This document shows positions 7,010-55,832 of a stretch of DNA of 64,000 bases, in pieces. The stretch's first letter is position 1. Each line of letters starts with the position of its first letter. Position numbers and translations under genes: made by a program. The DNA is taken from the NCBI GenBank assembly GCA_958296045.1, contig CATQHT010000001.1, positions 885,102 through 949,101 of the forward strand, written 5' to 3'. The notes under the pieces were generated by a model. The model was given only the letters and a program-made list of their open reading frames with translations, made no database searches and was not told where the DNA came from. The DNA comes from Rhodothermales bacterium (GTDB lineage: Bacteria; Bacteroidota; Rhodothermia; Rhodothermales; Bin80).

Positions 7010-7696
7010 CTACAGCTGTTCCAGCGCCCATGCGGCCGCAGCGCCAATCACGTTCCGCGGTGATGAGATGTTACGGGCTGCCTCCAGGAAGCGCCGCAGA
7101 TGAGGAGCACCTGTCCTGGCAAGACTGCGCAGCGCCTCAGCGCGAGCTACGTAGCTGTCATCACGCGCAAAGCGCTCCTTGAAAAACTCGGCCAGCGCAA
7201 CGTCCTGGCTGGCGCCGAGGCTGCGGAGCGCCGCTGCGCGAACGCGAGAATGCACATCCAGGCAGCGCTCCTTGAGAAAAGCGACCGAAGCCTCTGAACC
7301 AAGCGCGGTGATGCTCGTTGCCCGGACATACCAGAACGGATCGTCACGCGCGCTTTCCATGAGCGAGGTCCGCGCAGAAGGCTGCGCGGCGTGCGCGGCC
7401 AGCATCCCTGCTGCACGCGCCCTGCCCATCGCGTTGTCGTGTGTGAGCTGGTACTGCAGCTCAGAGCGCGACTTCGTGTGCACCCATTCGGCCAAAAGCA
7501 CATCGTTTTCGTCGAATCGAACCATCAGGGGGGCTCCTGGCAGGGCGAATGAGAATGAGTCGGTGCGCGCGGTGAGCCAGACCTCTTCGCGCTGAACGCT
7601 GTTGCCAGCTGTCTCTATCCGCAGCGTGACCGGCATTCGATACGCTGCCAGCGTGCCACCAGTCGTGTCCTGTACTTGAGCAACATGGACGGTCAC
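7010..7696 (-). CDS. M1-family aminopeptidase, exon 2 (C-terminal 228 aa, HEAT-like repeats)
   Basis: It begins VTVHVAQVQDTTGG..PVTLRIETAGN.. directly after the intron 3' end and is in frame with exon 1. The part of track ORF 7010..7957 upstream of 7696 reads through intron RNA. Confidence 0.85.
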   Translation of the reverse strand: MTVHVAQVQDTTGGTLAAYRMPVTLRIETAGNSVQREEVWLTARTDSFSFALPGAPLMVRFDENDVLLAEWVHTKSRSELQYQLTHDNAMGRARAAGMLAAHAAQPSARTSLMESARDDPFWYVRATSITALGSEASVAFLKERCLDVHSRVRAAALRSLGASQDVALAEFFKERFARDDSYVARAEALRSLARTGAPHLRRFLEAARNISSPRNVIGAAAAWALEQL

Positions 7697-8401
7697 ATCG
7701 CGGTAGCCCCAGGGTTTCCCCTGGGGCCCCGCACAGATCCGTGCGTGCGCGTTAACGCACACGGCTCTTCCCGCAGGTCGCGCTCCCGCGCATGACGTTA
7801 GGAAGTGGGGATACCCACCTCCAGCCGTAAGCGGTACACCTGCGCCCCGACTGTGGCACTGAGTCCACAGCTCTTGGACAGATTCACGTAATCCGGCCCA
7901 GAGTCCGGCATGAATCCAGCTTTCCGCTTTCCCCTTGGGTGCGACCCTTGGCTCCACCGGCTCCGCCCCGTGGTCATCAACGCGTTGTTCGCTGGCTTCA
8001 TAGCTACTATGGTCGCATCTGACTTCTCTCCACCGTACATCCTCCGATCGGCATTTAGCCTACGCTTTGGCGACCCTCCCCGAAGGGATGGGTAGTGGAG
8101 AGACCTCCCAGGTCCCGATGCAGTACGTACGTGCGTGCCTGGGTTCTTGGACACCGCGGGACCCTCCTCCGCCTCACCATTAACGGCAAAGAAGGTGTTG
8201 CCTTCGACCACGAAGAAACCCTCGGCGTCCCGGACGATGACATTTTCGGTGCTCATTAGCCCTGCCCACCCGCACCTCTACCGACGCTTCGCCTGCACCC
8301 TCGCGGGTACCAACGCACGGCTCGAGGACATGCGTGGATGGTTAGTCCTTCACATCGGGAGACTTTCACTCCCTGTACTGGCACCAGTTAGCCTGGCGCA
8401 C
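7697..8401 (-). ncRNA. ORF-less group II intron, copy 1 (705 nt), inside the aminopeptidase gene in sense orientation
   Basis: The minus-strand RNA starts GUGCGCC (complement of 8395-8401). A domain V-like hairpin lies at 7737-7767 (AGC triad, 2-nt CG bulge, tetraloop). A domain VI hairpin has a bulged A (complement of 7704) 7 nt from the 3' end ...CUACCGCGAU. There is no RT-like ORF. Excising it joins the flanks in frame. Confidence 0.85.
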
Positions 8402-9880
8402 CTCCATCTGCGCCTCATCCCAGATACTGGATACATCAAGCACAGGGTGGCCAGACCGGTATATCCACTGCTCGAAGAACCAGTCCAGGTCCTGTCCGGT
8501 AGCCTCCTGTACGGCCGTCATCAGGTCTGACGTGGCTACAGGCTCAAAGGCATGCTTCGATAGAAAGTGCTGCATGGTGCGCTCCCAGTGCGCATCCCCC
8601 AACAGATCGGTGAGCATGGCCAAAATTGCGGCCCCTTTCTGGTAGGTGTGCCGGTCAAAGTTCTGACTGGGAAACTCCCATCGGCGAAATACTACCGGAC
8701 GTCGGTACCGGCTGGCAGCTTCCGCAAAGTAGGCCTCCTTCTTGCGCAACAGGTTGAGCGCTCCCTCGTCGGGGCCATGCGCGTGCGCAGCCCACCGGTA
8801 CTCGCTGTAGGTCGCGAAGCTCTCGCTCAGCCAAGTGTCTGACCAGTGGCGATAGGAAACCAGATTCCCCCACCACTGGTGTGCGGCTTCATGCGCTACC
8901 AGCCAGTCGCTCGGGAAGTCCTGATGGGCAGCTTCATCATGGATGGTGGAGTGGCCGAGCACAGTGGCGGTAGTGCTTTCTGCGCCGCCGCCGATGCCAG
9001 GGATGGTGATCTGGTCGTACTTGACCCAAGGGTACGGCGTACTATACAGGTCAGTCAGGTACTGAAGGATTTCCGGTGTGCGCTCAAAAGATCGCATGGC
9101 ATCGTCCACGTCCTGCGGATACACCCAGTAGTTGACAGGAAGGCTTCCTAGTGAGTCCTTGAGCACGACGTACGGCCCGGCGACCATGACGTAGAGGTAG
9201 GTGGGGTGTGGCAATTGCTGGATCCAGTGAAAGGTGTGTTCCCCATTGCCATGGTCGGTCACGGACGCGAGGCGTCCGTTGGATAGCACCTGGTAGTCTT
9301 TTCGGACAGTCACCAATGTCTCGTTGGTGGCCCTGTCCTGCGGGTGGTCGTTGCAGGGCATCCAGTGCCGGGCGCCTTCAGGAAAGGACAGTGTGTTGAT
9401 CAGCTGTGGGTTCTCGTCTGTGGGCTGCTTAAAGCCAAGGCCCAGGTCGTAGGACGCAGGCATTCCGTAGGCTGTTGCATCTACATCCACATCCTCAGCG
9501 TAGTAAGTCACCGCAAAGTGGATGGTATCGCCGCGCGCCGCAGGTTCTTTTAGCGTGATCCGCAGCTGGCGCGGATCCTGGGTGAAGGTAAGTGCATGGT
9601 TGTGTGCGTCTATAGCGGCGGTGGCGACGAAGGTCTCGGCATCGAGCACTATTGTGGTCAGGTTATCTTCAAGCGACCGCAGCGAGATCACGTTGGACCC
9701 GTAGAACGAGCGTGCGGGTTCGTCAAAACGCAGGGTGACGCGGTAATGCAATGCGTCGTACGGACGGACAGGTTCTGCCTGGAGCGGGCGGCTATAGATG
9801 TCGGAGCGCTGCGCTTGGACGGTAGCTGGGGCAGCTCCGATCCACAGCGCAGCAAATAGGATTGTAATAGATTGTTTCAT
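8402..9880 (-). CDS. M1-family aminopeptidase, exon 1 (N-terminal 493 aa)
   Basis: Signal peptide; GGAESTT (GAMEN-like) motif; zinc motif HEAAHQWWGNLVSYRHWSDTWLSESFATY (HExxH-18-E). The exon ends ..IWDEAQME at 8402. Track ORF 8366..9880 runs 12 codons into the intron. Confidence 0.9.
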
Positions 9881-18794: not shown

Positions 18795-18848
18795 AATTTA
18801 TTGTCGTGTGGTATCTTATTTTGGGGAGTTGTGTGCTTAGAGGGCGGT

Positions 18849-20633: not shown

Positions 20634-20812
20634 GCCCTCTGCGCCACTGCTGAGCGCCACTTCTGCACTGCCGCGCGCAGGCATCCAAGCGCTTGCGCCT
20701 GCCGACCGCTAGCATTCCCGCAGCCCCCGCAGCCCCCGTCGGCCCCGCTCCAGCAGCGGCTTGAGCCCAGTAACCCCAGCAAGGGGCGCCGCCAACCAGA
20801 TGCGCCCAGCAT

Positions 20813-21300
20813 GTGCCGACGACGAGTCGACTACGGTACGGGATCGAACGCAGGCTACGCGAGGCGGGCTGCACGCCGACCGACCGCTACAAGGCGCGTC
20901 AAAGAGAAGCGGTCCCCATCCCTGGAAGACCTGAAGGCATCGCTTCAAGAACACACCAACGCGCAACTGGCATCTACGCGCTGCTAGAAACCTCCAACAC
21001 TTAGATGCCCAAGACGGGCTCGAAGATGTGGTAGCGCGCGTGCCCACACCTACCACAGCACTACGCGAGCCGCTCCCCCAGCGGCAGACCTACCTTGAAA
21101 CTTCCGCGACCCCACAGACACCGCTCCCACCAGGGCGTGCCTGCGCATAAGACCCGCTGTGCCACTCCCAAGCGCGAGACATGCACCGCACTGCGCAGGC
21201 GCCCAAGCACCCTGCGCATGCCTACCGCTACCATCCCCGCAGCGCCCATCGGTCCGCTCCAGCAGCGGCCCTAGCACAGTAACCCCAGCAAGATGTGCCG
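20813..21300 (+). repeat. degenerate, internally deleted second copy of the tnpC 3' part and 3' UTR, inside the same IS66 element
   Basis: ORF 20813..21004 (..IERRLREAGCTPTDRYKARQREAVPI..) mirrors tnpC residues ..IERRLREAGCTPEERYQARQKEAVPI... The stretch 21125-21300 mirrors 20600-20810 (..ccgctccagcagcgg...cagtaaccccagcaag..). Confidence 0.75.
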
Positions 21301-21922
21301 CTCAAAAGCACGCGCCACCGTGCATTCCATGGCCTGAAGGCAAACACGACGGCGAAAAATAGTCCTCGGCACGCTACCAGTCAGCTGAAATATCCCCGAA
21401 AAACCGGATTTTCGGACGGATACTGCGCACCAGCGCCGTCGGTTCGCAGTTTGGCATCTGAGCACTCGGCACAGGTGGTCAGAAGTGACGATTCACTATT
21501 TTGCATTGCATTCTGTACCAGAGCTCGCGCACACGTTCCACCCGGAATCTACATTACCGCTGAACAAGGACAGTCCTATGTTCATGTGCAGAGTGCGTCC
21601 TAGTTTGGAGCCCACAGCCCGAGAGTCGCCATGCAACCTTTAGATCATGTCTTGGCCTTCTAAGAGCTGAATCGCGGTGACCTCGCAAGTCTCGACTCCT
21701 GGTACACTTCCGGCGATCGGTCTCGAGGCCTATCCGGACGTGTATACAAGGTGATTCCGAGTAACCGGAACTAGAGATCACCGCCCGTTGCACCGCGGCC
21801 GAGGCCGAGGCCGGTGCATTCTGGCGGCCTTGGATCCAGTTCGCGATTCAAGTGCCGCATTCTCCCGTGTTCCACGCGCTTCTCAAAGTAAGGCCTATTC
21901 ATCCACCAAACATGTTACGCAG

Positions 21923-24900: not shown

Positions 24901-27900
24901 TACAATTTCTTCGCATCCCTATGAGGAGGCCGACGCGACTGCTGGCGAGATACATTGCCGTGGTCGAGTGCGGCGGACAGATACGAGGTTCCCGCTGGGC
25001 GTGCCGAGGCACCTGTCAGAGATTGATGCCTCGCTTCATACCCAAGTGGCCTTCGATTCAGACGAAGAATTGTACGATCAATTCTCTGCAGTGCTGGGCG
25101 ACACCTTTCAGTATGGCCCAAACTTCAGAAATATCCGAAACCTTCGGCGCGACCCGGTTGTGGGCAACTTGCTGTTTGAGTTGGAAATGGACGAGGCGCT
25201 GTGGAGGGGCGGCCAAAGCGAAGGCTTCGTATACAATCCGGCACTGCTTGATGGAGGACTCCAGGCATTTCTCTATGATCTGACGGTAGGGATGGGAGGT
25301 GACACCTTTTCCATTCCGCTCCGAGTGGAAAACGTAGTGCTGGTGCGTGCCCCAAGTTCCAATAGAATGGTGTGCCGGGTCACATACCCCAACAACAAAC
25401 GCTACGAAGTGGATGATAATGGTCAGTATTCGATCCCGAACGGTGAGTGGGTTTCAGGGAGTCTAAGCTGCTATGATGCGGTCACCGGGGACCTGATTCT
25501 GAACGTTGGGAAGTACATTTCCTTTAACTCGGACTCAAAGCGGATCGCATTTCCAAACAGTAGGCATTTTATACGCTGGCAGCGGAAAGCAATTACGGAC
25601 AGCCACCGCATAGTCTCCCGAATCCCGAATGGAGACATAGCACCTTCAATGCTGCTGAGCCTATTGGAAACGTCTGGTTTGCACGAGGCTCGGGTCTGCC
25701 GCATCGCAGAATTTGCTGGAGAAAGAGAGCCGGGGCAGACGGTGCTTGCGTGTTGCATAGACCACCTTGTCGCCAGTGAGGCGCAGAGCGAGTACTGGTT
25801 GGTATGCTCGAGCGAAGCCGGTGCGCGCGCCTGTTATGACGAGTTTCATGGTCATCGTGCGACGCTGCGCTTCATCTCTAGGGAAGCACAGCCTGACCAC
25901 GACTCTGCACTGCAGGATTCATTATTTCGACGTAATGCCGCCGATCTTCTGATACTGCACGGCGACACGGACTTTGAGCCAGCCGATTGGACCTTCTGGA
26001 GACGCCTACTGATCAGCGGCGGGCTGGCGTTGGTCGTTCACGAGGCAGATGCCTTCAAACAGCCAGATGCGGGTTGGACGACCTTACGTGCTGGGTCCAG
26101 GTCCACACTACTTGGCGCGCCCGTGACCACGACAGCCCTCACGCGCGAGTCGAGGATGCCCGTGCCTGGGCCACGTTGGGTTATTGGAGAGCCATCAAGC
26201 CTGGCAGAAGCGTGGGCCTCGCGCTTCAATGGAGCTGATGTTACCAGTATCCCTGAAGCGTTTCAGCCATCTGAGTTTTTTTCTGCGGAAGAGCAGCCGG
26301 ATGCGGCTGTGGTGCAGGCGATTGATGTCTTTTTTGGCAACGACCCGCAGGATCCCACTGGAGAAAATGCGCTCATTCAGTTTTTGCCCATCATTCAGTC
26401 CCTCATCTACTACCGCGCCGAGAACGCGGAGTGCGACTGTCGCTTGACCGTAATAACCCATCGTGCAGCTTCTGACGTGCATAATCCGCGCGGCGCCGCC
26501 TTGTGGGGTGCACTGCGATGCATGGTATTGGAGATTGGGCCTGAGATCAGGCTGGATCTCCGCTTGGTAGATGTTGGTTCGGAAGACGACCTAGCGGTAG
26601 TGGCGCACCTGGCGCGGCATGACGTACGTGAGCGTGAGCTTGTCGTGCGCGATGGCGAGATCTGGGTGCCCCGCATTCATAGCGACAGGCGTCTGCATCA
26701 CCCTATTGCCACCCAGGAGGATCCTCCGTACCGGCTCTTCGTGGACGATGTAGGTCAGGTAGGCGGCCTACGTATGAAGACCTACGATCCGAAGCCTCTC
26801 TCAGCAGATGCCGTGGAGGTAGACATCGATACCGCGGCGCTGAATTTCCGCGATGTCATGGTAACGCTCGGACTGCTGCCTGCTCTTGCCTTTGAGCGAT
26901 CCGGCGTTGGAAGGGAAATTGGCATGGAAGCCAGCGGTATCGTTCGCCGCATCGGCTCTGACGTGGACGAGTTGCAGGTGGGCGACAAGGTAGTGATAGT
27001 AGGTGCGGGCTGCATCGCTAATCGCGTGACGGCTAAAACATACCAGGTGTTCCCAGTGCCAGAGGGCTTATCTATGGATCAGGCCGGCGCATCCTTGACG
27101 GTGCTGGCCACAGCCTACTATGCGCTTGTGCATCTGGCGCAGCTTCGACACGGGCAGCGTGTACTCATTCACTCGGCCATGGGCGGCGTAGGCCAGGCAG
27201 CCATCGCACTGGCCAGACATGTGGGCGCTGAGATCTACGCTACAGCGGGAAGTGATAGCAAGCGCAATCAGCTTCTCTCCATGGGAGTGGCGGCCGCATT
27301 TGACTCGCATTCCACATCGTGGTACTCTGAGCTGATGCAGGCCACTGGCGACGGTGTGGATGTCGTTCTAAATTCATTGGCTGGTCCGCATGTGCCGCTG
27401 TGCCTTCGTGCATTACGCCCGGGCGGATGGCACTGTGAAATTGGTAAGGTCGACATCTACTCCGACGGTCAGGTCGACCTACGTCTGCTGCGCAAGAACC
27501 TCAGCTTTGCCGCCATCGATATGGATCGGCTCATGCTGGATGATCCGCACCTGTCGCGGCAGATTTCTGAAACGTGCACGGACCTATTAGACCGCGGCAT
27601 TGTGCCACCGTTGCCAGTCACCGTCTTTCCGTTTGGAGCGTTTACCAAAGCCTTCCGGCTGATGGCGTCGGGCCAGCATCAAGGTAAGATCGTGCTGAAG
27701 GCGCCCGCCTCGCTGGCTGATCGCGACTTTCACGTTGATGATCGCCGACCATTCTTCGATCCCGATGCAACCTACCTGGTAACCGGCGGACTAGGAGGAT
27801 TCGGATTGCGCTTGGTGCCCTACCTCGTGGCTGCGGGAGCGCGACACCTGACGCTTCTGGATCGCGACCCGAATCAACGTAGGAGAGCCAAGTGGCTATA

Positions 27901-28912
27901 CACCCGTACTTCCCTCCCTGGTATGTCAACGTCAGCCGAGTTTGACTTTATCCAGGGAGATGCTTCCATCGAAGCGGACATTCAGCAGTGCGTGGCCAGC
28001 CTGAAGAAACCGCTCAAAGGCGTGTTCCACCTGGCTGGCATCCTCGATGACAGGTTGCTTGTCGATGTGACCCCAGAGTCTGTCCATCGCATATTTGCTC
28101 CCAAGGCATGTGGGGCGCTCTACCTGCATCGTGCAACACAAGGGCATGCCCTGGACTATTTCGTTATGTTTTCGTCTGTAGCCGGGACATTTGGTAACGT
28201 TGGGCAGACCGCCTACGGCGCAGCCAACGCCTTTGTGGACGCATTGGCTGCTATGCGCCGGCGGCAGGATTTGCCAGCATTGTCATACATCTTGGCAGCT
28301 ATTGGCGATGTGGGCATGGCCGCGCGCAACCTCTCTGTTTTACAACTGGCGCGGACCTCGGGGATGCCTCCTGTCAGCAGCAGTCTTGCGGCTGCAAACT
28401 TGGACTATGCCCTGAGGCGAGCCCCTGGCGATCATGTGATCACGGCCTTGTTCAAGCGCGTATTCTGGGAGCTTGACTCTTCGGACTACCTGCGCGTGGG
28501 CACGCTGATTGGCAATCAGTTTGCATTCGATACGGGATCGAACGATCAGCTGACGACGGACATCATCACGACACGTATCGCAAGCAAAGTCGCGGACCTG
28601 TGCGGCCACGATGACTTCAACACGGATGAGCCGCTTTCCAGTCTGGGACTCAACTCTATCTCAGTAGCTGAGTTGGCGGCCTTCATTCGCAGCGATTTCA
28701 ATTTTCGTGCCAGTGCACTTGAGCTGATGACTACCGCTTCGTGCCAGTCACTGGCCGATGCCATCGTAACGGGCTCGGATTCTGCAAAGGAATCCGAGAG
28801 TACGGCGCCAGACACAGAGCAAGTAGCATCCACTTCCAGGGGACGGGTGCGACGGGCAGGACGAAAGCCTTCAGTGTTTGCCAGCGACACTGAAGATCAC
28901 TTCAGGTCCTGA
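21923..28912 (+). CDS. reducing type I polyketide synthase, KS-AT-DH-(pseudoMT/structural)-ER-KR-ACP
   Basis: KS: TACSAG (Cys codon 22445-22447), EAHATGT, NLGHMEAAA. AT: FSGQGTQW, AHSSGE (23795-23809), FHS. DH: HGPLVGHRIP. ER: LNFRDVM, HSAMGGVGQAA. KR: YLVTGGLGGFG, SSVAGTFGNVGQTAYGAANAF. ACP: LGLNSIS (Ser codon 28655-28657). ATG 21923 chosen inside track ORF 21788..28912. Confidence 0.9.
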   Translation: MSAQTRIAIVGYSYRLPSGIRTDKEFWQLLSNRQFIREPIVKRFGRGHRPIGPYSGPARMASPYEGLIRDKDELLFDRAFFGMSYSEMLHAIPEVRMLLNTAWESIERAGWSLQGLHNSSTGVFIGAQLPATANWRPMRGVTIHTVSSISLSMLANRISFHFNLMGPSVTYCTACSAGLSALHAAVGALSSSDCDRALVGAVTYLGSSRMSSGFNMMGIISPDGICRSFDAEANGYLRSEGAFMYAMKPLEAAERDGDHIEAVIEATAINAAGAADGATGLTPGRYISAPTRHAQASLLHRALDKADLTPAAIDYVEAHATGTAVGDPIEGNAIAEALGGVRRDIPLRLASVKSNLGHMEAAAFTCALTKVVLMMQRRTFAPMSRSFRVPNPAIDFESCPMRVQTGCEPFPDHSVTVGINSFGFGGANGHCIVREYRPARPRTWSIPLAPKAGYMVPLSTRTPAALPERAHRLRQFLDRHSPDLYSLAGNLSRRCTHFPARAALVVRTMDDLREKLEELARSEESFPLVADRGPRVAMVFSGQGTQWAGCGRKLYEAHPVFRRVIDTIEDYWLRYSPHSLRMACFGAPQSELDETELAQPVVFALQCALYELLKTWGVYPDCVVAHSSGEIAAAYAAGLHSLADATRLVYHRATLQQRIAGSGRMLAISLDSSTVAELLASTKTPGHVEIACINSPANTVVCAPATVLKPVMEKLERQGVQHTLIAGNIAFHSPAMDPIREDALEAFSFLDLEAPDPVVPYVSSVTGQEVLRLDSRYWWSNMREPVRFAAAMQTVVENYNPDIVLEVAPHSALQPIIAQCVDDRQAPPTIVGSFTRHKDTRTSFQEMLAALYQAGLSLDFAAQYPRPAPITHLLPGHPRSESRLVEPTLDDEHMQNMSQYAHGPLVGHRIPCDHLLFEARLSSAAFPWMEEHRVHHAPIMPTAGYIELVFEALEGVPLEIERLELMHQVPIADPVRLQTALRPLRAFPDTFEITISSHPYEEADATAGEIHCRGRVRRTDTRFPLGVPRHLSEIDASLHTQVAFDSDEELYDQFSAVLGDTFQYGPNFRNIRNLRRDPVVGNLLFELEMDEALWRGGQSEGFVYNPALLDGGLQAFLYDLTVGMGGDTFSIPLRVENVVLVRAPSSNRMVCRVTYPNNKRYEVDDNGQYSIPNGEWVSGSLSCYDAVTGDLILNVGKYISFNSDSKRIAFPNSRHFIRWQRKAITDSHRIVSRIPNGDIAPSMLLSLLETSGLHEARVCRIAEFAGEREPGQTVLACCIDHLVASEAQSEYWLVCSSEAGARACYDEFHGHRATLRFISREAQPDHDSALQDSLFRRNAADLLILHGDTDFEPADWTFWRRLLISGGLALVVHEADAFKQPDAGWTTLRAGSRSTLLGAPVTTTALTRESRMPVPGPRWVIGEPSSLAEAWASRFNGADVTSIPEAFQPSEFFSAEEQPDAAVVQAIDVFFGNDPQDPTGENALIQFLPIIQSLIYYRAENAECDCRLTVITHRAASDVHNPRGAALWGALRCMVLEIGPEIRLDLRLVDVGSEDDLAVVAHLARHDVRERELVVRDGEIWVPRIHSDRRLHHPIATQEDPPYRLFVDDVGQVGGLRMKTYDPKPLSADAVEVDIDTAALNFRDVMVTLGLLPALAFERSGVGREIGMEASGIVRRIGSDVDELQVGDKVVIVGAGCIANRVTAKTYQVFPVPEGLSMDQAGASLTVLATAYYALVHLAQLRHGQRVLIHSAMGGVGQAAIALARHVGAEIYATAGSDSKRNQLLSMGVAAAFDSHSTSWYSELMQATGDGVDVVLNSLAGPHVPLCLRALRPGGWHCEIGKVDIYSDGQVDLRLLRKNLSFAAIDMDRLMLDDPHLSRQISETCTDLLDRGIVPPLPVTVFPFGAFTKAFRLMASGQHQGKIVLKAPASLADRDFHVDDRRPFFDPDATYLVTGGLGGFGLRLVPYLVAAGARHLTLLDRDPNQRRRAKWLYTRTSLPGMSTSAEFDFIQGDASIEADIQQCVASLKKPLKGVFHLAGILDDRLLVDVTPESVHRIFAPKACGALYLHRATQGHALDYFVMFSSVAGTFGNVGQTAYGAANAFVDALAAMRRRQDLPALSYILAAIGDVGMAARNLSVLQLARTSGMPPVSSSLAAANLDYALRRAPGDHVITALFKRVFWELDSSDYLRVGTLIGNQFAFDTGSNDQLTTDIITTRIASKVADLCGHDDFNTDEPLSSLGLNSISVAELAAFIRSDFNFRASALELMTTASCQSLADAIVTGSDSAKESESTAPDTEQVASTSRGRVRRAGRKPSVFASDTEDHFRS

Positions 28913-28984
28913 CAATTGGAACGCGCAAAGGCAGCAGCACGCTGCTAGGTAACCTCCTCATTTGGATTACATATACGCCCGAGC

Positions 28985-31483
28985 ATGTTGGAGAACAAAC
29001 CCCCTAAGGATACAAGCGTGTCCCCACTCAACGGCCGGATGCCGCGTAAGTGCGAGAGTGACCTAATCAACTTGCGCCGCTTCATCAGCTCAATAACGGC
29101 AGAGGAGCAGCCCGCTGAAGCGGTTTCGCCTGCCGCATTTCAAGAGGTCTTTCTGACCGGCGCCACCGGCTTCATAGGCCGATTTCTTGTTCGCGAACTC
29201 TTGCAACAGAGCGAGCGGCTGAGCATCCACTGCTTGGTTCGCGCAGGCAACATCGAGGAGGGCTTAGCGCGGGTGCGCGATGCCATGACGGTGGCGGAAA
29301 TTTGGGACGATGCCTATCAGGATCGATTGCGCATCCTTCCCGGCGATCTTACTCTGGAGCGATTCGGGCTGGAGGAAGAAGTATTTAACGTTCTTGCTGA
29401 CAGGGTTGATGCGGTATATCATGTGGCTGGACGCGTCTCATTGGCAATGTCATACAGCTCGGCCCGAGTATATAACGTGGTGGGTATGCGACCCGTGCTC
29501 CAGTTATGCCTGCGCGCGCGTCGTAAGCATCTGTACTATATCTCTACACTGGGAATTTTTCCCGAATACTTCGCAAGGTTCACGGGCCGCTACGAAAGTT
29601 GCCGTATCGAGCACCATGGCCAACCTGATGTGCGGGAGATGATGTGGCTGTTTCCACTTGGCATCGCGGGATATGTATGGAGTAAGCTGGTTGCCGAGCA
29701 GTGTTCCCTGGCGGCGCAGGCCGTTGGACTGCCCGTCGCCGTGTTTCGTCTCCCGAACATGACGCTAGCCAGCACAGGATACACTGATCCCAACAATGTC
29801 GAAGTGCGGATGGTTGCGGCTTCGAATCAGACCGGCAAAATTCCGCAGGGCTTCTCACAGCGTATTTCGGGCGAACCTGCCGCCGCTGTGGCCGAAAGTA
29901 TTGTGGCTGTTTCGCTGAACCCAGACCGGCGTTATACCATCTATCATTGCTGTGATCCTGACCCTTCTTCGGAGGTGTTGGAGACTGCTGACCTTGGGAT
30001 CTACTGGAAAAAGGTTTCTTATTCCACGTTCAAGCTCGCATGTCTGGCGCATGGGGACAGCTCACCGCTCAATGGTTTGTGGCCAGCTCTTGACCACTTC
30101 AGACAATTATGGTATGAGCGTGGCAGTTACCCTGGTAGGCAGCCGATCAGCGATCGATCTTTAAGGGAAGACTGCCCGCGACCCATACACTGGCCAGCTC
30201 GTCTGGTCTGTAATTTGCGCTCTTACCTCTGGATCTGGCGTAACCGCGAAGCATGGCCGTATCCGAAGGCAGAGATTTGCCTTGACCACAATCGGCTCCT
30301 GGAGCGGGCTCAGCACTATGCGGACACCGCCGGTGTTTCTTTTGAGGATGCATATCCCTCAGAAAGTCTGGAAGGCTTGAAGCAGTTGGTAGAAGCGCTG
30401 CAGCGGCCCGAAGCCCGCATGCTACCGAGTGGGATTCGCGAAGCGGTCTACATTCTTGGGCATGGCCTCCGCGTCGGTGCGGCGTTGGAACGAGAACGAC
30501 TTGCGCATCCCGAGATTGTGAACCATGAGGTGGTGCGGCCGATCTTCATCATCGGGATTAACCGTACTGGAACGACACTGCTGCATCGGCTCATGGCGCG
30601 TGACCAGAGGCATTGGGCGCTGCGCTATTACGAGCTTGCTGAGCCCGTTCTTGCATCTGGACGTTACGATAAGTTCGCATCTTCGAAACAGGATCCCCGC
30701 TACACCTATCGGAAGGAGCTGCTCGAGTCCAAAGATGCCAGTGACCGATTCGCCGGCATTCACGCGACGGAGGTTGACGACCCGGAAGAGGACTTGTGGC
30801 TGTTTATGTACCGGTTTCTGAGTTGGGCCTACTCGACCCTCTACCATATTCCGCAATATTATGAATGGCTTTTGGGCACGGATTCACGGCCCGCATACAG
30901 GATGCACCGGCGGTTCATACAGCATTTTACGTGGCAGAGGCGTCAGCAGGACAAGGGCGGCCAGCGATGCTGGCTACTTAAGATGCCCTGGCATCTGATG
31001 CGGTTTGACACTCTTGTCGAAACATACCCGGACGCCACCTTTATACAGACACACAGAGATCCTGCAGAGGTGATGGGCTCATGGAACAGCCTGGTTACGC
31101 AACTAAGGAGCCGTACAATGGAGCCGCGCCCAGCGGATGAAACCGGTGCTGAGCAGCTAGCCCGCATGAGTCACATGCTTAATGGTGCCACAGCGTTTCG
31201 CGCGGCGCATCCCGAGCTGGAATCACGCTGGATTGATGTCAGATTCACGGACTTGGTTGCTGGGCCTATAGCCACAGTCCGCGACATTTACCAGGAGGCC
31301 GGATGGCCGCTCACGGAGGAAGCAGTGCATGCCATGCGCGCGTGGCTGCTGGATCAGCAAGAAAAGCGTCGCAAGGAATCCCGCCATCAGTACAGCCTTA
31401 GCGACTACGGATTGAGCGCGGAAACCGTGCGTGATGCATTTTCTCCGTATCTCGACTTCGTTGCTGCGCGCGGCCTCATGTAG
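28985..31483 (+). CDS. fusion protein: thioester-reductase-type SDR domain plus sulfotransferase domain
   Basis: The N-terminal half has FLTGATGFIGRFLVRELL and YVWSKLVAE (TR/NAD_binding_4-like GxxGxxG and YxxxK). The C-terminal half has IFIIGINRTGTTLLHRLMA (a PAPS-binding-loop-like sulfotransferase motif). It lies 72 nt downstream of the PKS on the same strand. Confidence 0.8.
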   Translation: MLENKPPKDTSVSPLNGRMPRKCESDLINLRRFISSITAEEQPAEAVSPAAFQEVFLTGATGFIGRFLVRELLQQSERLSIHCLVRAGNIEEGLARVRDAMTVAEIWDDAYQDRLRILPGDLTLERFGLEEEVFNVLADRVDAVYHVAGRVSLAMSYSSARVYNVVGMRPVLQLCLRARRKHLYYISTLGIFPEYFARFTGRYESCRIEHHGQPDVREMMWLFPLGIAGYVWSKLVAEQCSLAAQAVGLPVAVFRLPNMTLASTGYTDPNNVEVRMVAASNQTGKIPQGFSQRISGEPAAAVAESIVAVSLNPDRRYTIYHCCDPDPSSEVLETADLGIYWKKVSYSTFKLACLAHGDSSPLNGLWPALDHFRQLWYERGSYPGRQPISDRSLREDCPRPIHWPARLVCNLRSYLWIWRNREAWPYPKAEICLDHNRLLERAQHYADTAGVSFEDAYPSESLEGLKQLVEALQRPEARMLPSGIREAVYILGHGLRVGAALERERLAHPEIVNHEVVRPIFIIGINRTGTTLLHRLMARDQRHWALRYYELAEPVLASGRYDKFASSKQDPRYTYRKELLESKDASDRFAGIHATEVDDPEEDLWLFMYRFLSWAYSTLYHIPQYYEWLLGTDSRPAYRMHRRFIQHFTWQRRQQDKGGQRCWLLKMPWHLMRFDTLVETYPDATFIQTHRDPAEVMGSWNSLVTQLRSRTMEPRPADETGAEQLARMSHMLNGATAFRAAHPELESRWIDVRFTDLVAGPIATVRDIYQEAGWPLTEEAVHAMRAWLLDQQEKRRKESRHQYSLSDYGLSAETVRDAFSPYLDFVAARGLM

Positions 31484-43649: not shown

Positions 43650-45830
43650 CTTAGGGATCATCCATAAATAACTTGCCCATCTGGACAGGTTGTCTCAGAT
43701 AAGCGGGATGTGGTCCAGTCCTTCGCTGGCGCATTACAGAGCATTCCGGGTCCTGTTAGCCTAGTGTTATGGAACACTGTTGATCAAGCCAAGACTGACT
43801 GAGTACTTTTTCGGCCCGCTCATCAGCTGTTTTCCGCGCTCAGTGGGTAGCTGGATCCGTTTGCCCTTAATCCTTGTTCATCATGGATGCCCGCTCCACG
43901 AGCCAGATGCAGTTCGCTGCATCCATGAGCTATTGTCTGCATTATGACTATATTACGATATGTCCTAATACGATACATGTCATAAGGAGGCCATGAGACC
44001 CGTTACCTATTCCGCCGACAAGCTGGCGGAGGCCCTGCGACGCATGACCGTTGCTACCTTACCCGAACTGGCTGCTGCGCTCGGCAATTGCTCCGCCATC
44101 ACGGTCCACCGCAAACTTAAGCAGCTCGGCTACCTCTCTAGCTACTCGCACCGTGGCAAGTACTACGCGCTCCAAGCGGGTGCGAACTTTGATGCGCACG
44201 GTTTGTGGTTTCACAACGATATTCGATTCTCCACTTACGGTACGCTTCGCAATACGGCCAAGATGCTGGTTGAGGCATCCCCACTGGGCTACCGTTCTAC
44301 CGAACTGGATGATGTGCTGCAAGTCCGCACCATTGATACGTTAGCGGCCCTGGTCCGTGACGGCGATCTTGCCCGTGTCCGCTTTCAGGAGCGGAGTGTG
44401 TATTGTTCTGCGGATATTACTCGTCAGCGGCGCCAAGTTGCTGCTCGCCGGATTCAAGCAGCCGGAATTGAGGCCATGCCCAATCCCACCCAAGCCAACA
44501 GCACACACTCAGCTGCGATCGCCTTGTTTTACAGTGTGCTGAATGAGAAGCAGCGGCGCCTGTTTGGGGGTCTTACCTCTCTGTTATGCGGCTATGGTGG
44601 GGACCGACGGGCCGCGAGTCTGTTCGGTCTGCACCGAAAGACCGTCCGAAAGGGTCGCCTTGAACTGGCCAGCGGCAAAGTGGAGGCGCATCGCATTCGC
44701 AAACCGGGTGGGGGGCGTACCGCCTTGAAAAAAAAGCCCTTGGATGATCGCGGAGCTGATCCGACTGGTCCAACCGGAGACCGCTGGTGATCCCATGGGT
44801 GGTCTGTTATGGACACGGCGTTCGCTGTCCAAGCTCGCCGCTGCTCTTGCGTGCTCAGGTATCAAGGTCAGCCCGACCACGGTAGGTAAATGGCTCCGAA
44901 TGCTCGGATACTCCATGCGCGTGAATCGCAAGAGTCTCAGTCGTACCGCACCGTCCGGGCGCGACAAGCAATTCAGGCACATCGCTGCTCTGCGTCAGCA
45001 GTGCTATGACGATGGCATTCCCGTTATCAGTGTGGACACCAAAAAGAAAGAGTTGATCGGGCTGTTTGCTAACTCCGGGGCTGTCTGGTGCCGCGCTCCA
45101 CACCAGGTCAATGATCACGACTTCCGGTCTCAGGCCAAGGGCTTGGCGGTACCTTACGGCATCTACGATGTGCAGGCGAATAGCGGTACCGTCTTTGTCG
45201 GTGACTCCCGGGATACTCCGGCCTTCGCCGTGGATTGCATTGCCCACTGGTTCAATACCGTGGGCCGTAGTCGGTATCCCGATGCCGACCGGCTCGTTAT
45301 CTTGGCTGACTGTGGCGGAGCGAACGGCTACCGTTCACACGCTTGGAAGTACTTCCTGCAAACAGGTGTGTGCGATATCCATCAACTGAGAGTTTCGGTT
45401 GCGCATTATCCCAGCGGTGCAAGCAAGTGGAACCCCATCGAGCACCGCCTCTTTAGTGCTATAAGCCGGAACTGGGCGGGCCGACCACTGGATAGCTGGG
45501 AAACACTGCTCAAGTACATCCGCACGACAACTACCAAGTCTGGGTTGCGCGTCAACTCTGTCAGAGTAACGAAGCAATATCAAACCGGCATCAAAATCAG
45601 CAAGCAACAGATGGTAAAGGTGAACATTAACCGTAGCGAGACGCTACCTCAGTGGAACTACGACATCTACCCCAGCGAAACGCTGGCCTCTGCTCGGATG
45701 CCAACAGATGCCTGACTACCCAAACATCATCTGCCAGATCGCGATTTACCTCCCCTAGTCTGCCAAAGTGGACTCCTGGAGAGGTTGACTTCATTCAGGA
45801 TGGGAAAGTTATTTATGGACGAACCCTTAG
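43650..45830 (+). mobile_element. ISAzo13-family insertion sequence
   Basis: Imperfect terminal inverted repeats of about 36 bp. The left one is cttagggatcatccataaataacttgcccatc at 43650. The right one, reverse-complemented, is ctaagggttcgtccataaataactttcccatc and ends at 45830. They enclose the transposase frames. No clear target duplication seen. Confidence 0.7.
43993..45715 (+). pseudogene. ISAzo13-family DDE transposase in two frames, switching at an A8 run
   Basis: ORF 43993..44790 ends ..IRKPGGGRTALKKK. ORF 44744..45715 continues the family sequence ..IAELIRLVQPETAGDPMGGLLWT...ISVDTKKKELIG...ADCGGANG...KWNPIEHRLFS. The switch is at aaaaaaaa 44728-44735. Confidence 0.8.
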
Positions 45831-45897: not shown

Positions 45898-46089
45898 ATG
45901 TCGGAAATAGTCGTTGTTTACGTTTCACGTAGATCCCTTGACGCTGCTTTCGGTCTGGCCCTGCGCGAAGGGGTGCCGTACACGGACGTCTTGCGCCGAG
46001 CCGTTGTCGATGAGGCCATTACGTACTCGAAGCGGATACGGGCTGCCCAGACGGCATGCCTGAAAGCCGGCCCACGAGAGCGCTTGTAG
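45898..46089 (+). CDS. possible small ribbon-helix-helix-like protein
   Basis: The 63-aa ORF has a beta-strand/two-helix pattern (VVVYVSRRSLDAAFGLALREGVPYTDVLRRAVVDEAI). It overlaps the proposed tnpB exon 1 in another frame. Support is weak. Confidence 0.25.
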   Translation: MSEIVVVYVSRRSLDAAFGLALREGVPYTDVLRRAVVDEAITYSKRIRAAQTACLKAGPRERL

Positions 46090-48088
46090 CCTTGCTCCTG
46101 AGCCAGACATACCGCTGCTATACAAAGAAGGCGGGCTATGCCCGTCTGCGGCGGAAGTTCGTAAACGGTAAGTGGGTGCGCCAGGCTAACTGGTGCCAGT
46201 TCAGGGAGTGAAAGTCTCCCGATGTGAAGGACTAACCATCCACGCATCTCCTCGAGCCGTGCGTTGGTACCCGCGAGGGTGCCAGCCGAGCGTCGGTCGA
46301 GGTGCGGGTAGGCAGGGCTAATGAGCACCGAAAATGTTATCGTCCGGGATGCCGAGGCTTTCTGCTTGGTCGAAGGCAACACCTTCTTTGCCGTTAATGG
46401 TGAGGTGGAGGAGGGTCCCGCGGTGTCCAAGAACCCAGGCACGCACATACGTACTGCATCGGGACCTGGGAGGTCTCTCCATTACCCATCCCTTTGGGGA
46501 GGGTCGCCAAAGCGTAGGCTAAATGCTGATCGGAGGATGTACGGTGGCGTGAAGTCAGATGTGACCATAGTAGCTACGAAGCCAGCGAACAACGCGTGGA
46601 TGACCACGGGGCGGAGCCGGTGGAGCTAAGGGTCGCACCCAAGGGAAAAGCGGAAAGCCGGATTCATGCCGGACTCTGGGCCGGTTTTCGTGAATCTGTC
46701 CAATGGCTGTGGACTCTGAGCCACAGTCGGGGCGCAGGTGTACCGCTTACGGCTGGGGGTGGGTATCCCCACTTCCTAACGTCATGCGCGACAGCGCGAC
46801 CTGCGGGAGGAGCCGTGTGCGTCAACGCGCACGCACGGATGTGTGCGGGGCCCCAGCGGAAACCCTGGGGCTACCGCGATGTCCGCAATTGGGCGGTCGA
46901 ACAATGCCGCAACGCACACAAGGTAGCAGAGAAGCATCCGAGCTTTTTCACGTTGACGAAGCTCTGGACGGCCGCCCGCAACGCCGATGAGCGCAATCTC
47001 GAGTTCGGCGTGACTGAGCAGCGTTCTCTGATCAGGGGCGTGACGGAGGGTTACAAGCGCTTTTTCAATAAGCACAATGCGCGCCCGCCGCGTTTCAGCG
47101 GCGACTTGGTGAAGAGCTTCAGGCTGCTACGAAAGCCCGAACGCGTCAGGCGCCAAGACTATCGCGTTCGCATCAAGGGCGTCGGGTACGTCCGTTTCAC
47201 CGATTGGCGCGGGTTGATCAAGCGCTACGGCTGCAAGTTCGTGCGCATCGTGCGGTCGTCGCTGGGTACCGAATACTCGATACAAGTCGTGTACGAGCGC
47301 CCCGAGGCGCCAGAGAACAGCTGCGCAGACACGCCGATGGCCGTGGACCTTGGCTGCAAGGCCATCGCGACGCTGGCGGATGGGAAGAGCTACGCGCCCA
47401 TCAAAAAGAGTGAGCCCCGCAGGGACGCTGTGCGGCGTCGGGCTGCTAAGACGAAGAAAGGCACGCGTTTGCGCCGCAAGCGGTTCGGTGCTTGGCGCAA
47501 GGAGGCCGAGCGAGTAGTAAGACGCAACCGCGGGTACCGCCACGAGGTGGCGGCCGACGTCGTTAAGCGATCCGCGAATCTGTTTCTGGAAGACCTGAAA
47601 GTAGAACGCATGACACGCGCCGGTGGCAGCCGCAAGACGGGGCTGAACCGATCGATGCGCGCGCAAGGGCTGTACGAATTGGTGCAGCTGTTGAAGTACA
47701 AATCCGCTTTGCTTGGCGGTAAGTGGAGCTGGTTCCGCCGAACGACACAACGCAGAGATGCAGCGCTTGCCCTCACAAGCCAGAGGAAAGGCTACGCCTG
47801 GCTGACAGGAAGCATCGTTGTGCCACGTGCGGAAAGACCCAGTGCCGCGACGTTAACGCGGCGTTGAACGTGTTGTATCGGGGCCTTTGCCCTGATGGAT
47901 GGGCGGCGAGCCTATCGTACGCGCAACACATGTCTGCTCACCCGGACGCTGAGCGGCATCCGCTGTTGGATGCTGTGGCAGGTCTGGGGAGTGTACAGAA
48001 TCGTGCTCGTGAGCTGCATCCGCAGGGGTGTTGCGCACCCACGAGTTCATGCGAAATTGACCACCGACCAACCAGGCAGATATGTTAA
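46056..48088 (+). pseudogene. tnpB: TnpB-like (IS200/IS605 OrfB) RNA-guided nuclease gene, interrupted by a group II intron and carrying a 1-nt frameshift
   Basis: Proposed exon 1 (46056-46175) reads MPESRPTRALVALLLSQTYRCYTKKAGYARLRRKFVNGKW. Exon 2 from 46881 has ..RFFNKHNARPPRF.., RuvC-I VDLGCKAIATLADG and RuvC-II FLEDLKVERM. The frame breaks at about 47720-47728. ORF 47723..48088 continues ELVPPNDTTQRCSACPH..HRCATCG...CRDVNAALNV (zinc finger and RuvC-III). Confidence 0.75.
46176..46880 (+). ncRNA. ORF-less group II intron, copy 2 (705 nt), inside the tnpB-like gene in sense orientation
   Basis: It is colinear with copy 1 over the full length, with scattered substitutions. It starts GTGCGCC at 46176. 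Domain V lies at 46810-46840, the domain VI bulged A at 46873, and it ends ..CTACCGCGAT at 46880. Confidence 0.85.
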
Positions 48089-48783
48089 GTTTTCGCCAGC
48101 CCTTAGCGTGCGTTGACGTGAACAAGCCCCAGATAAGTTGCTGGACCGGCCCAAGCGCCGCCGCCGCCCTCACGCGAGGTCGGGAAAGTAATGGCGGTAC
48201 CTGGGGTAGCTGTTTGGCCAGGTGGCGGAGTCTTGTTACGACTGTTCCGAGCGGGGCCAGAATCTTCAGTGTCCAGCCGTATCGTACCCCTCGCTGACTG
48301 TGATGTGTAAGGGTCAGAAGGTGAGGTCGGTGCTTCCCATGGAGCTTCGCGTAGCATGCACGAGCAGGGCTCGCACACCTGCTGGCACTTCGTTAAGAAG
48401 CTTGGCGACTTGCTCGGGAACAGCGTGGGCGATGGTAGGTCTGGGCTGCGTGCTATGTCATACTTGGCGCGTACGAGACGGTAAGTGGGAAATGCTTTAG
48501 GATGCATTCCATTCGGCAACGCCACCGAGCAGTGGTGGCTCGCAAGTACCGGGCTGCAGCTCAAGCACCGCGCAGGAAGACACGTTTCTGGAAAAAGATC
48601 ATGTTCCCGGTCGTGGTGGCAGAAGTCGTGCTCATTACGTGCAGACTGTGATCGATGATGCGCGTAGGCTCGCGCAGCTGCAGCCTGAGCTGGGCGATGC
48701 CACAGACTAGAAAACCTTCGACTATGCTGAGTCCTGCATGCTGCTGATGAGCAGTGCTGAACCCAGCTACAGCACAGAATCGT

Positions 48784-54043: not shown

Positions 54044-54549
54044 CGGCTCTAAGCCCTGCGCATACAAATTACGATGTAATCCGCACGAAAGCCTGGTGCG
54101 GGGAACCCGCACGCCGTGGTTTGACGTGGCGGAGTCTGGAAACGTGATTCTAGGAGACGGCGGTTACCGACCGAGTCCCGTGGGTTGGCGCGCCAGATCC
54201 CGGCTTTGATTGCGCGAGCCCGTGGGCGAGGATTCCCCGGGCAATTCAACGATGCATTCGAAGTCTTTGAGGCGCAGCGCACACGGAAGCGTACGGAATT
54301 GCTGGCACGGGCCAAGTTCGGTCGGAATCTGGGTAAGAACCACGGTCGCCTGTGGAATGCGATGCGCAGTGGACCTCCCGCGGGTGTGATGGAGCTGCTG
54401 TTAGAATATCTGAGTCTTCGTGTCAAGTCTGGTCGGGTCACGCACAAAGGCTGTCCGAAGGTATCCGTCCGAAAGTCTGCCTCTTGAACAGGTACAATTA
54501 CTGCCCGACCTTGTGGGAGGTACTATTGGCCAATCCATGAGGTCGGGGC

Positions 54550-54867
54550 ATGGCCACGAGAGTCAGGGGCACATCAAAGGTGACGATTCCGTTGATCGCG
54601 CTTCATTTGCGCGATTCGCAGCGTGCGGAGGCACTTTGCCCGGAGCATGGCAATGGGCGTAGTCAGCTGATGTCCAGGCGCCGCAAGAACGCGGCATCTT
54701 CGTCTGAGGTGGTGGCGACGCGTTTGTGGAGGTGCTTCCCCTTGTTCGGCCAGACCGAGGAGCGTCGATGGGGTTGCAGTTTCCAGGCGGCGCCTGTTTG
54801 CGTGTATTTTCGCCAGCATCGTCGTCTGTCGGCGCTGAATCATGCTGAGGGTGGCAACTCATGTTAG
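54550..54867 (+). pseudogene. IS66 orf1, frameshifted
   Basis: MATRVRGTSKV.. matches the intact orf1 up to ..AASSS, after which the sequence is out of frame. Confidence 0.7.
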
Positions 54868-55208
54868 CGCTGGGACCTGCTGACCGCTCTTACGTGTATT
54901 GCGTACCATCGGACCTGCGGAAGGGATTTGACGGCCTATGCGGTCTGGTTCGTTCAGGGATGAATCGGGATCCATTGTCGGGTGATATCCGTGTCCTGGT
55001 CAATCGTCGTCAGACGTACATCCAGCTCTTGGTGCGGGATTGCAGCCGGTTTGCGCTTTGCTACAGGCGTCTGGAGTCGGGAACGTTTGCGCTTCCTGTC
55101 ACGGGCACGCCGGATTGGACGCAGGTTGTTTGTCTTTTAGAGGGTGCATCGCTGAAGTCTGTTCGTTATCGTTGGCGTAACACGCTCCCGGTGGCTGCGC
55201 GCGGTTGA
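54861..55208 (+). CDS. IS66 Orf2 (TnpB), diverged orphan copy
   Basis: At 115 aa it is colinear with 18447..18794 (SDLRKGFDGLCGLVRSGMNRDPLSGD...YRRLESGTF). It probably has no function without tnpC. Confidence 0.6.
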   Translation: MLALGPADRSYVYCVPSDLRKGFDGLCGLVRSGMNRDPLSGDIRVLVNRRQTYIQLLVRDCSRFALCYRRLESGTFALPVTGTPDWTQVVCLLEGASLKSVRYRWRNTLPVAARG

Positions 55209-55832
55209 ACTTTTTCGTGCGATATCTCATCTTACCGAAAGAATCCCGGTTGGTGATGGAGTCCCAGATATTAGCCACCTGACAGATCCGGGCCGACGCC
55301 GCTACTGCTCCGCTGCTACCAGCCAGCATCGCATAGCAATTAAGGCCTCTACACAGCTCCGCCACCGGTGCCAGTAGCCCTCCGTAAGTGTCCAGTTTAC
55401 CTCGGATTGCTCGTCCACTTTGGATCGGATGATGCAACCTTATTGTCCACGGAGGCCTTGAATAAATGGGCCTAGTAAGAAGTCCCCCCTTCCCCTTCCT
55501 CCGCTTCCGCCGCACGATACCACTAATGCCGTTCACCATAGCCGCCTCGCCGTGGCATACGCTAGGAGGTCACCATCGCCAATCCGGTCCACCCTGGCTA
55601 GGCCAGGGACGCAGCGCCCAGGTCGCGGTGTGTCCAGGCGCAGTAGAGCCCTGCCCGTATCGATTGTTTGTGCCCCGGGCATGTGGTGGTGGTGTGGTCC
55701 GCACCGCGCGCCTTCCTAAAGCGGAGGCCATGCGCAGAGTAGTTCCAAAGGACGACATGAAGCACTTGCCCAAACGTTACCTGCGCGCGTAACGTATAAA
55801 CCTCTTCGCTGTCCCCTTTCCCGCCAATCGCC

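Follow-up and report, generated by a model that had tools for sequence, protein, structure and literature searches.

The 64,000-nt stretch of Rhodothermales contig CATQHT010000001.1 analysed here (the window) holds two diverged copies, on opposite strands, of a 705-nt intron that lacks an open reading frame (ORF). Both elements are group II introns, with a six-domain fold, exact boundaries and host ORFs that are restored when the introns are removed. Both arose by deletion from a mobile group II intron, losing the intron-encoded protein (IEP) and keeping the complete ribozyme (domains D1–D3, D5 and D6). We consider it probable that the pair has diverged in fate: copy 1, in a gene for an M1 aminopeptidase, would be constrained and spliced either with a maturase acting in trans or by self-splicing, while copy 2, in a frameshifted tnpB, would be under relaxed constraint. 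The two introns are as follows.

7697..8401, minus strand (read 8401..7697): copy 1 of the intron (705 nt; 94.5% identity with copy 2).
46176..46880, plus strand: copy 2 of the group II intron, likewise 705 nt and ORF-less, with termini GUGCG...CGCGAU.

The copies were delimited from the sole long inverted repeat that a repeat search found in the window (arms 7695-8402 and 46175-46882; 708 nt, 94% complementary), the arms being trimmed to the intron termini GUGCG...CGCGAU. The trimmed copies differ by 39 substitutions (20 transitions and 19 transversions) and by no insertions or deletions, and the sequences that flank them are unrelated. An initial annotation of this DNA had placed a second copy at 46176-46880 on the plus strand, colinear with copy 1 and of equal length, with each copy in the sense orientation of a host ORF. 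It was exact on these points and on the exon ends that it quoted; the computed identity falls inside the 90-95% that it guessed by eye, and the four differences that it listed are all present (copy 1/copy 2, in intron numbering: nt 648 UAAC/CAAC, nt 682, nt 320 UUCG/UUUG and nt 616-617 GGGA/GACA). A 705-bp inverted repeat with its copies 37.8 kb apart is also a possible substrate for homologous recombination, which would invert the segment between them.

The group II assignment is carried by model matches and by covariation. Over the full length of the Rfam model RF02005 (group-II-D1D4-6; gathering score 49 bits) copy 1 scores 167.7 bits and copy 2 157.8 bits, and against RF00029 (D5-D6; gathering score 40 bits) copy 1 scores 40.0 bits, exactly at the gathering score, and copy 2 scores 30.6 bits, below it. 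The termini of both copies fit the 5' GUGYG and 3' AY consensus. RNAalifold was run on alignments of 5, 12 and 15 sequences, the largest comprising the two copies and 13 relatives and spanning D1–D3, the base of D4 and D5–D6. This 15-sequence alignment supports 174 pairs, 81 of them with compensatory double changes, and standard pairs fill 96.7% of its cells. When the 3' partners were slid by one to three columns, 38-42% of cells were paired, with 12-22 compensatory pairs, and column shuffles gave 86% paired and at most 51 compensatory pairs. The 5-sequence alignment, which covers the full intron length, yields 195 pairs, 42 of them compensatory, and the base of D4 covaries across the family alignments. 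The claim of a group II intron with six domains and a second, diverged copy is thereby upheld, although its support comes from covariation with distant relatives and not from the differences between copy 1 and copy 2. The domains map as follows (plus-strand coordinates are those of copy 2).

Intron nt 6-294, 46181..46469, plus strand: D1, closed by CCAGG/CCUGG.
Intron nt 299-377, 46474..46552, plus strand: D2, with the stem strand CUCCAUUACC, the UUUG hairpin, and the Shine–Dalgarno sequence and AUG of the former IEP ORF.
Intron nt 378-384: J2/3, the junction between D2 and D3.
Intron nt 385-462, 46560..46637, plus strand: D3.
Intron nt 463-632, 46638..46807, plus strand: remnant of D4, with the basal helix CCC-AA-GGG / CCU-GC-GGG.
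Intron nt 634-667, 46809..46842, plus strand: D5, with the AGC triad at 636-638, a 2-nt CG bulge and a UAAC (copy 1) or CAAC (copy 2) loop.
Intron nt 670-703, 46845..46878, plus strand: D6, with the bulged branch-point A698 (46873), 7 nt before the intron end.

The CCGCGAU that trails A698 to the 3' end of the intron fits a branch point 7-8 nt from the splice site; the introns may self-splice with lariat formation.

Recognition of the exons by exon-binding sites (EBS) paired to intron-binding sites (IBS) had been left in doubt by the initial annotation and is now largely settled. Covariation of each intron column with each exon position was searched in 12 family members at 10 different target sites. 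Exon positions -1 to -5 pair with nt 187 to 191 in all 12 members, through four to six pair types, and exon position +1 pairs with nt 253 in 12 of 12, always by Watson-Crick pairs and with four pair types; once three extra members are added the latter pairing holds in 14 of 15, a count read from the alignment by eye and not computed. This identifies EBS1 as the loop of the nt 176-204 hairpin and C253 as EBS3. The contacts, including the tertiary pair gamma–gamma', are listed below.

46362..46367, plus strand: EBS1 of copy 2, nt 187-192 CUGCUU, pairs with IBS1 AAGUGG.
8215..8210, minus strand: EBS1 of copy 1, nt 187-192 CUUCGU, pairs with IBS1 AUGGAG.
46428, plus strand: EBS3 (C253) of copy 2, pairs with G46881; in copy 1, C8149 on the minus strand pairs with G7696.
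46557, plus strand: gamma, A382 in J2/3, pairs with gamma' U705 (46880).
46165..46175, plus strand: 5' exon end of copy 2, with IBS2 ACGGU (tentative) and IBS1 AAGUGG.
46337..46343, plus strand: tentative EBS2 of copy 2, in a 15-nt one-sided bulge at nt 156-170; AUCGU at nt 164-168 would face exon ACGGU at -11..-7.

As read from the sequences, EBS1 in either copy makes 6 of 6 pairs with its own IBS1 (two of them G-U) and 4 of 6 with the exon of the other copy. The differences at nt 189 and 191, two of the 39, compensate for the difference in exons, and this is the sole compensation between the copies. Gamma and gamma' also covary, being A/U in the two window copies and in relatives L201, L210 and L211 and G/C in the other 10 relatives. 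Pairing of EBS3 with the first nucleotide of the 3' exon is the IIB-type arrangement; class IIC, which inserts just downstream of a terminator hairpin and has a short IBS1, does not fit, given that both copies lie inside ORFs and use a 6-bp IBS1. EBS2 probably lies in the bulge at nt 156-170, which offers exon matches of 4-6 bp in most members (6 bp in L019 and 6 bp in L095) in a register that varies, and the column-wise covariation search found no consistent column for it among the 12 members. The candidate in copy 2 matches 5 bp at -11..-7, and that in copy 1 merely a displaced 5 bp at -18..-14. The segment CUCCA(C/U)UACC (nt 302-311), once proposed as a single-stranded EBS candidate, had to be abandoned: it forms the 5' side of the D2 stem, whose nt 299-308 pair with nt 368-377, and as a stem strand (CUCCAYUACC) it shows four or five compensatory pairs relative to Vicinamibacterales copies. 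It is therefore not free to serve as an EBS, and the role of EBS1 falls to the loop at nt 187-192.

Each copy divides its host gene into two exons.

8402..9880, minus strand: exon 1 of the M1 aminopeptidase gene that hosts copy 1, with Pfam domains Peptidase_M1_N and Peptidase_M1.
7010..7696, minus strand: exon 2 of the same gene, with HEAT repeats.
46056..46175, plus strand: exon 1 of the tnpB that hosts copy 2.
46881..48088, plus strand: exon 2 of tnpB, with Pfam PF01385 and PF07282 and a 1-nt deletion frameshift at about 47723.

Joining 9880..8402 to 7696..7010 on the minus strand gives a continuous 721-aa ORF in phase 0, with HEAAHQWWG (HEXXH) inside Peptidase_M1, and neither stops nor frameshifts occur in its two exons of 493 and 228 codons. 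The predicted ligated junction joins CAGAUGGAG to GUGACCGUC, or in longer form ...GCGCAGAUGGAG to GUGACCGUCC.... A comparison with 185,579 species genomes placed the best relatives of the peptidase in two Rhodothermales metagenome-assembled genomes (MAGs), where the gene lacks an intron (66% and 58% identity), and the ortholog alignment crosses the junction (...WDEAQME/VTVHVAQ..., the slash marking the junction) ungapped. The splice sites of copy 1 are therefore exact, and the organism is Rhodothermales-like.

For copy 2, joining 46056-46175 to 46881 onward yields TnpB (PF01385), with the predicted ligated junction ...ACGGUAAGUGG to GUCCGCAAUU... and the Zn-ribbon/TNB domain (PF07282) in another frame at 47723-48088. 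The change of frame implies a 1-nt deletion, AAG GTG to AAGTG, within 47717-47726. When the frame is corrected, TnpB aligns with residues 12-371 of ISDra2 TnpB (8H1J), with colinearity unbroken at the intron junction, and it seems to keep the three RuvC acidic residues in position. The host of copy 2 is thus a broken transposon gene, unless the frameshift is a sequencing error. The region is rich in insertion sequences (IS): just upstream of tnpB lies an ISAzo13-family transposase (43993-45715, plus strand) whose overlapping ORFs at 43993-44790 and 44744-45715 suggest a frameshift.

What has been lost from both copies is the protein. In full-length relatives the IEP ORF starts, as read from alignments, at about nt 362 in the 3' strand of D2 and continues through J2/3 and D3 into D4, where the 5' strand of the basal helix encodes ...T-K-G-N... 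and synonymous changes are compensated on the 3' strand. Across nt ~355-480 of L095, L111, L040, L210 and other full-length relatives, about 37 IEP codons overlap D2, J2/3, D3 and the D4 basal helix, so that the same nucleotides are under both protein and ribozyme constraint. A blastx search with either window copy recovers only IEP residues 3-20 and 26-41, in two frames (E = 9e-7), and the other ~460 residues are gone. The remnant amounts to about 40 frameshifted N-terminal codons, from D2 (nt 362) on, to which copy 2 adds an apparent extra stop (C452U, the sequence being read by eye). Neither copy retains the intact reverse transcriptase (RT)/maturase ORF that marks an autonomous retroelement.

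The substitutions between the copies bear on whether each is maintained. A homology-based structure covers 570 of the 705 nt, and 14 differences fall in its 347-352 paired nt and 15 in its 218-223 unpaired nt (odds ratio 0.56-0.58, Fisher p = 0.17); the D4 interior, which is without an outgroup, holds the remaining 10 in ~135 nt. No pair within the intron has changed on both sides. Five of the 14 stem differences keep the pair by wobble (nt 109, 175, 307, 387 and 634), one leaves a mismatch in copy 1 (G183.G194, in the EBS1 hairpin stem) and eight leave a mismatch in copy 2 (nt 26, 135, 272, 373, 375, 423, 666 and 682). The eight pairs broken in copy 2 stand at positions conserved in 10-13 of the 13 relatives. 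One of these substitutions, C666G, disrupts G635-C666, the pair at the base of D5 that none of the 13 varies, and another, G682C, turns the D6 pair 682-689 (GC, AU or UA in the family) into C.C.

The direction of change agrees with this distribution. Polarised with 10 outgroups, 16 changes are derived in copy 2 and three in copy 1 (binomial p = 0.0044), and with 13 outgroups and a stricter majority the counts are 14 and three (p = 0.013); all 13 outgroups are nearer to copy 1 than to copy 2. Threaded onto the consensus structure, copy 1 has a folding energy of -165.8 and copy 2 of -129.3 kcal/mol, so that copy 2 is about 36 kcal/mol less stable, and both Rfam models score it about 10 bits below copy 1. 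These comparisons suggest that copy 1 is under constraint and that copy 2 is decaying under relaxed constraint, given its eight broken pairs against one, its 14-16 derived changes against three, its lower Rfam scores and its less stable fold.

That both copies are functional and held by purifying selection, their differences being neutral loop changes or adaptive retargeting, was in essence the view of the initial annotation, and it now appears unlikely. Three of the four differences that were quoted in its favor do sit in loops (nt 320, 616-617 and 648), and the fourth, nt 682, is paired in D6; over the whole structure the avoidance of stems is a weak trend that does not reach significance. 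The wobble-conservative changes at five of 14 stem positions, the fit of each EBS1 to its own exon and the intact AGC triad, A698, EBS3 and gamma of copy 2 all speak for this view. They are opposed by the eight uncompensated disruptions in copy 2, including a D5 and a D6 pair, by its excess of derived changes and Rfam deficit, and by the frameshift in tnpB, on account of which nothing selects for splicing of its transcript. Selection as opposed to decay may accordingly be retained for the family and plausibly for copy 1, but not for copy 2, which displays the very uncompensated stem substitutions that had been named beforehand as evidence against that view.

Under the explanation preferred here, each copy, lying in the sense strand of a gene, would be excised from the pre-mRNA along the usual group II route. 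EBS1 (nt 187-192) would hold the last six exon nucleotides and EBS3 (C253) the first G of the 3' exon, with gamma A382 pairing to U705 at the very end of the intron. The bulged A698 of D6 would attack the 5' splice site, and the released exon would then attack the 3' splice site and restore the reading frame. In vivo, splicing may depend on a maturase that a full-length relative at another locus of the genome provides in trans, or may proceed by self-splicing; the trans model is suggested because bacterial ORF-less introns nearly always co-reside with related IEP-encoding introns (PMC4424553) and because ORF-less and full-length members of this family, though of different sublineages, co-occur in Vicinamibacterales MAGs. 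Copy 1 would be under purifying selection, presumably because an intact M1 aminopeptidase requires it to splice. Copy 2, in a frameshifted tnpB, would be gathering helix-breaking mutations under relaxed constraint; the tuning of its EBS1 to the tnpB exon suggests that copy and target were once matched.

Several observations weigh against this explanation. The rate asymmetry comes from 17-19 polarisable sites, and copy 2 could still splice, given that it retains the AGC triad, the branch-point A and perfect EBS1 and EBS3 matches. The frameshift in tnpB may be a sequencing error. A function for copy 1 is suggested solely by its conservation and its intact host ORF, while copy 1 itself has no convincing IBS2 at -12..-7 and carries the mismatch G183.G194 in its EBS1 hairpin stem. 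A tblastn search with a family IEP found no RT in the 64-kb window beyond the remnant, and hence no IEP-encoding relative is visible there. The D5 loop is UAAC or CAAC and not GNRA, and the nearest relatives in the collections searched are only ~70-72% identical.

The target of copy 2 recurs in its neighborhood. The 10-mer CGGTAAGTGG, which comprises IBS2 and IBS1 of copy 2, occurs at three plus-strand sites within 2.3 kb, against an expected 0.06 in the window, and the third of them lies within an exact copy of the full target.

46166-46175, plus strand: CGGTAAGTGG, the real 5' exon of copy 2.
47717-47726, plus strand: CGGTAAGTGG, at the tnpB frameshift.
48479-48488, plus strand: CGGTAAGTGG, third site.
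48478..48489, plus strand: unoccupied exact copy-2 target, ACGGUAAGUGG followed by G (IBS2-IBS1-IBS3).

With IBS3 included, the 12-mer ACGGTAAGTGGG is exact at 46165 and at 48478, and the flanks of these two 12-mers have nothing further in common. The 12-bp direct repeat was also considered as the border of an inserted 2.3-kb unit, an idea rejected because tnpB is colinear across the intron. A test of the 48479 site as the mark of a TnpB omega-RNA or an IS end gave no support, the 299 nt upstream folding no better than shuffles (z = 0.46) and having no Rfam match. The CGGTAAGTGG sites may be footprints of precise intron loss, a local target preference or chance. A bolder proposal would make copy 1 an organelle-like, domesticated, splicing-only intron, stably settled in a conserved enzyme gene on the chromosome of a free-living, Rhodothermales-like host with no cognate IEP in the genome, excised by self-splicing or a host factor, and would read the three CGGUAAGUGG sites (46166, 47717 and 48479) as cycles of intron gain and precise loss; we regard it as improbable.

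It is very unlikely that both copies are inert relics and that the insertion inactivated the M1 peptidase. The window lacks an IEP, ORF-less bacterial introns are often dead ends (PMC4424553), and copy 1 is without a clear IBS2 and has a weakened EBS1 stem, all of which speak for this reading; yet the peptidase exons are stop-free and in phase, keep HEXXH and align end to end with orthologs, and copy 1 preserves nearly all pairs conserved in the family, with just three derived changes. An IStron is a group I intron whose ends coincide with the ends of an IS200/IS605 transposon, so that the whole IS is spliced out. The position of copy 2 inside tnpB in an IS-rich region might recall such a tnpB-associated intron, a miniature inverted-repeat transposable element or an IS end, but a repeat of any of these kinds in place of a group II intron is scarcely conceivable in the face of full-length Rfam matches, six covarying domains and EBS/IBS pairing, with copy 2 lying 120 nt inside the tnpB ORF and not at IS ends, and copy 1 having no IS context.

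Elsewhere in the window there are two diverged IS66-family elements (18013-20633 and 54461-55218, both plus strand), whose accessory-ORF regions are ~70-74% identical (repeat families D1-D3 and D5, labels unrelated to the intron domains). The first has a full DDE_Tnp_IS66 transposase at 18801-20633, with a 42-nt tandem duplication at 18933-19016. Direct repeats at 20097-20967 and 20745-21301 (plus strand; ~79-85% identity, ~707/~509 nt spacing) take in the 3' end of the IS66 transposase ORF and the sequence just downstream. At 21788-31483 (plus strand) a 2374-aa type I polyketide synthase (ketosynthase, acyltransferase, dehydratase, enoylreductase, ketoreductase and acyl carrier protein; KS-AT-DH-ER-KR-ACP) precedes a protein of 832 aa that has both a reductase (NAD_binding_4) and a sulfotransferase domain.

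As a rule, group II introns of bacteria encode an RT of their own and avoid functional genes. ORF-less introns within conserved protein-coding genes represent a state that is thought to precede organellar and ultimately spliceosomal introns. The window offers a natural matched pair, with an apparently constrained copy in a host gene that needs it to be spliced and an apparently relaxed copy in a broken transposon gene, and with EBS1 re-tuned to each target. Such a pair would be convenient for asking which positions of the ribozyme are required in vivo, how target specificity drifts once an intron has inserted ectopically, and whether a maturase acts in trans.

The family to which the copies belong was drawn from a genome contig collection with a degenerate D5 pattern and a 5'-end pattern. 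Its members, at 66-72% ribozyme identity by blastn, come from MAGs labelled Vicinamibacterales, Alphaproteobacteria, Thermodesulfobacteriota, Arenicellales and others. An exact D5 31-mer and an exact D1 20-mer are both absent from the same genome contig collection. A lineage-specific D5 pattern hit two loci in metagenome contigs, related in D5 only, and the 5' 18-mer matched two loci in viral contigs; blastn of the intron against plasmids gave matches of 14-24% coverage only, to introns of rhizobia and Acidithiobacillus. Exact look-ups of two proteins encoded in the window gave no match. At full length, members of the family measure about 1.91-1.93 kb, and their RT/maturase combines RVT_1 and GIIM domains but lacks an HNH endonuclease. 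The family can be described as endonuclease-less and IIB-like, with no phylogenetic class (D, E or other) assigned on comparison with PMC3522654 and PMC3552965. The IEP of L095 is 52% identical to that of an ltrA intron common on Klebsiella plasmids and 59% identical to one in Skermanella.

One close comparison is with the full-length members L210, L201, L211 and L095, which share the ribozyme family, L201, L210 and L211 being 70-71% identical to the window copies. Their IEP N-terminus, MxxGxEKSDxxIVAxKPANK...AEPVEPR...KGN, is recognisable in the remnant of the window copies. These members and the ltrA intron of Klebsiella/Enterobacteriaceae plasmids have an intact RT/maturase and are presumably autonomous, whereas the window copies are without an RT.

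Also comparable are L036, L019 and L105, ORF-less introns of 654 nt in a Vicinamibacterales MAG (OZ244228.1), which have the same architecture and EBS1 and EBS3 positions at ~67-69% ribozyme identity, and which resemble the window copies in the UAAC/CAAC polymorphism of D5 and in the internal deletion of the IEP. They differ in that an independent in-frame deletion has fused N- and C-terminal IEP codons, in that gamma-gamma' is G-C, and in that two of the three are nested in another intron copy (twintrons), whereas the window copies lie in host genes. In the twintrons on OZ244228.1 (L019, 1310-2204, minus strand; L105, 4741-5693, plus strand) a 654-nt ORF-less member sits at about nt 240 of a copy of the same family, and the inner-intron EBS1, GAGCUC or GAGCCC, matches the outer-intron GGGCUC. 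More ORF-less members, of ~0.8 kb and several per genome, occur in Vicinamibacterales MAGs (L205, L213, L216, L217, L226 and L227). In the MAG OZ220736.1 ORF-less members co-occur with the full-length L115 but are only ~74% identical to it and so represent a different sublineage. These sequences suggest repeated loss of the IEP within the family.

Among described systems, the ORF-less introns of Thermosynechococcus elongatus (Mohr et al. 2010; PMC2882425) and the bacterial ORF-less introns surveyed in PMC4424553 are likewise IEP-deletion derivatives that keep the full ribozyme and occur as several diverged copies per genome. Their EBS have drifted to new targets, and for splicing or mobility they presumably rely on an IEP in trans, as would also hold for the window copies. 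The window copies differ from these introns in belonging to an endonuclease-less RF02005 lineage with an IEP ORF that starts in D2, in their Rhodothermales-like host, in lying as two copies within 64 kb that contains no IEP donor, and in the residence of one of them in a conserved chromosomal enzyme gene.

That last setting is rare, ORF-less copies in conserved protein-coding genes being uncommon among bacteria, and ORF-less introns nearly always share a genome with relatives that encode an IEP (PMC4424553). C.te.I1 of Clostridium tetani and the recA intron of Geobacillus kaustophilus resemble the window copies in occupying the sense strand of a protein-coding gene, so that host expression depends on splicing; C.te.I1 is ORF-less as well, has no IEP anywhere in its genome and undergoes alternative splicing, whereas the recA intron encodes its IEP (PMC4424553). 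Bacterial group II introns without an ORF, divergence of EBS towards new sites, twintrons and the occasional intron in a housekeeping gene have all been described (PMC4424553; PMC2882425). The kind of element and its likely mechanism are known, and what the window adds is a lineage represented at no more than about 72% identity in the collections searched.

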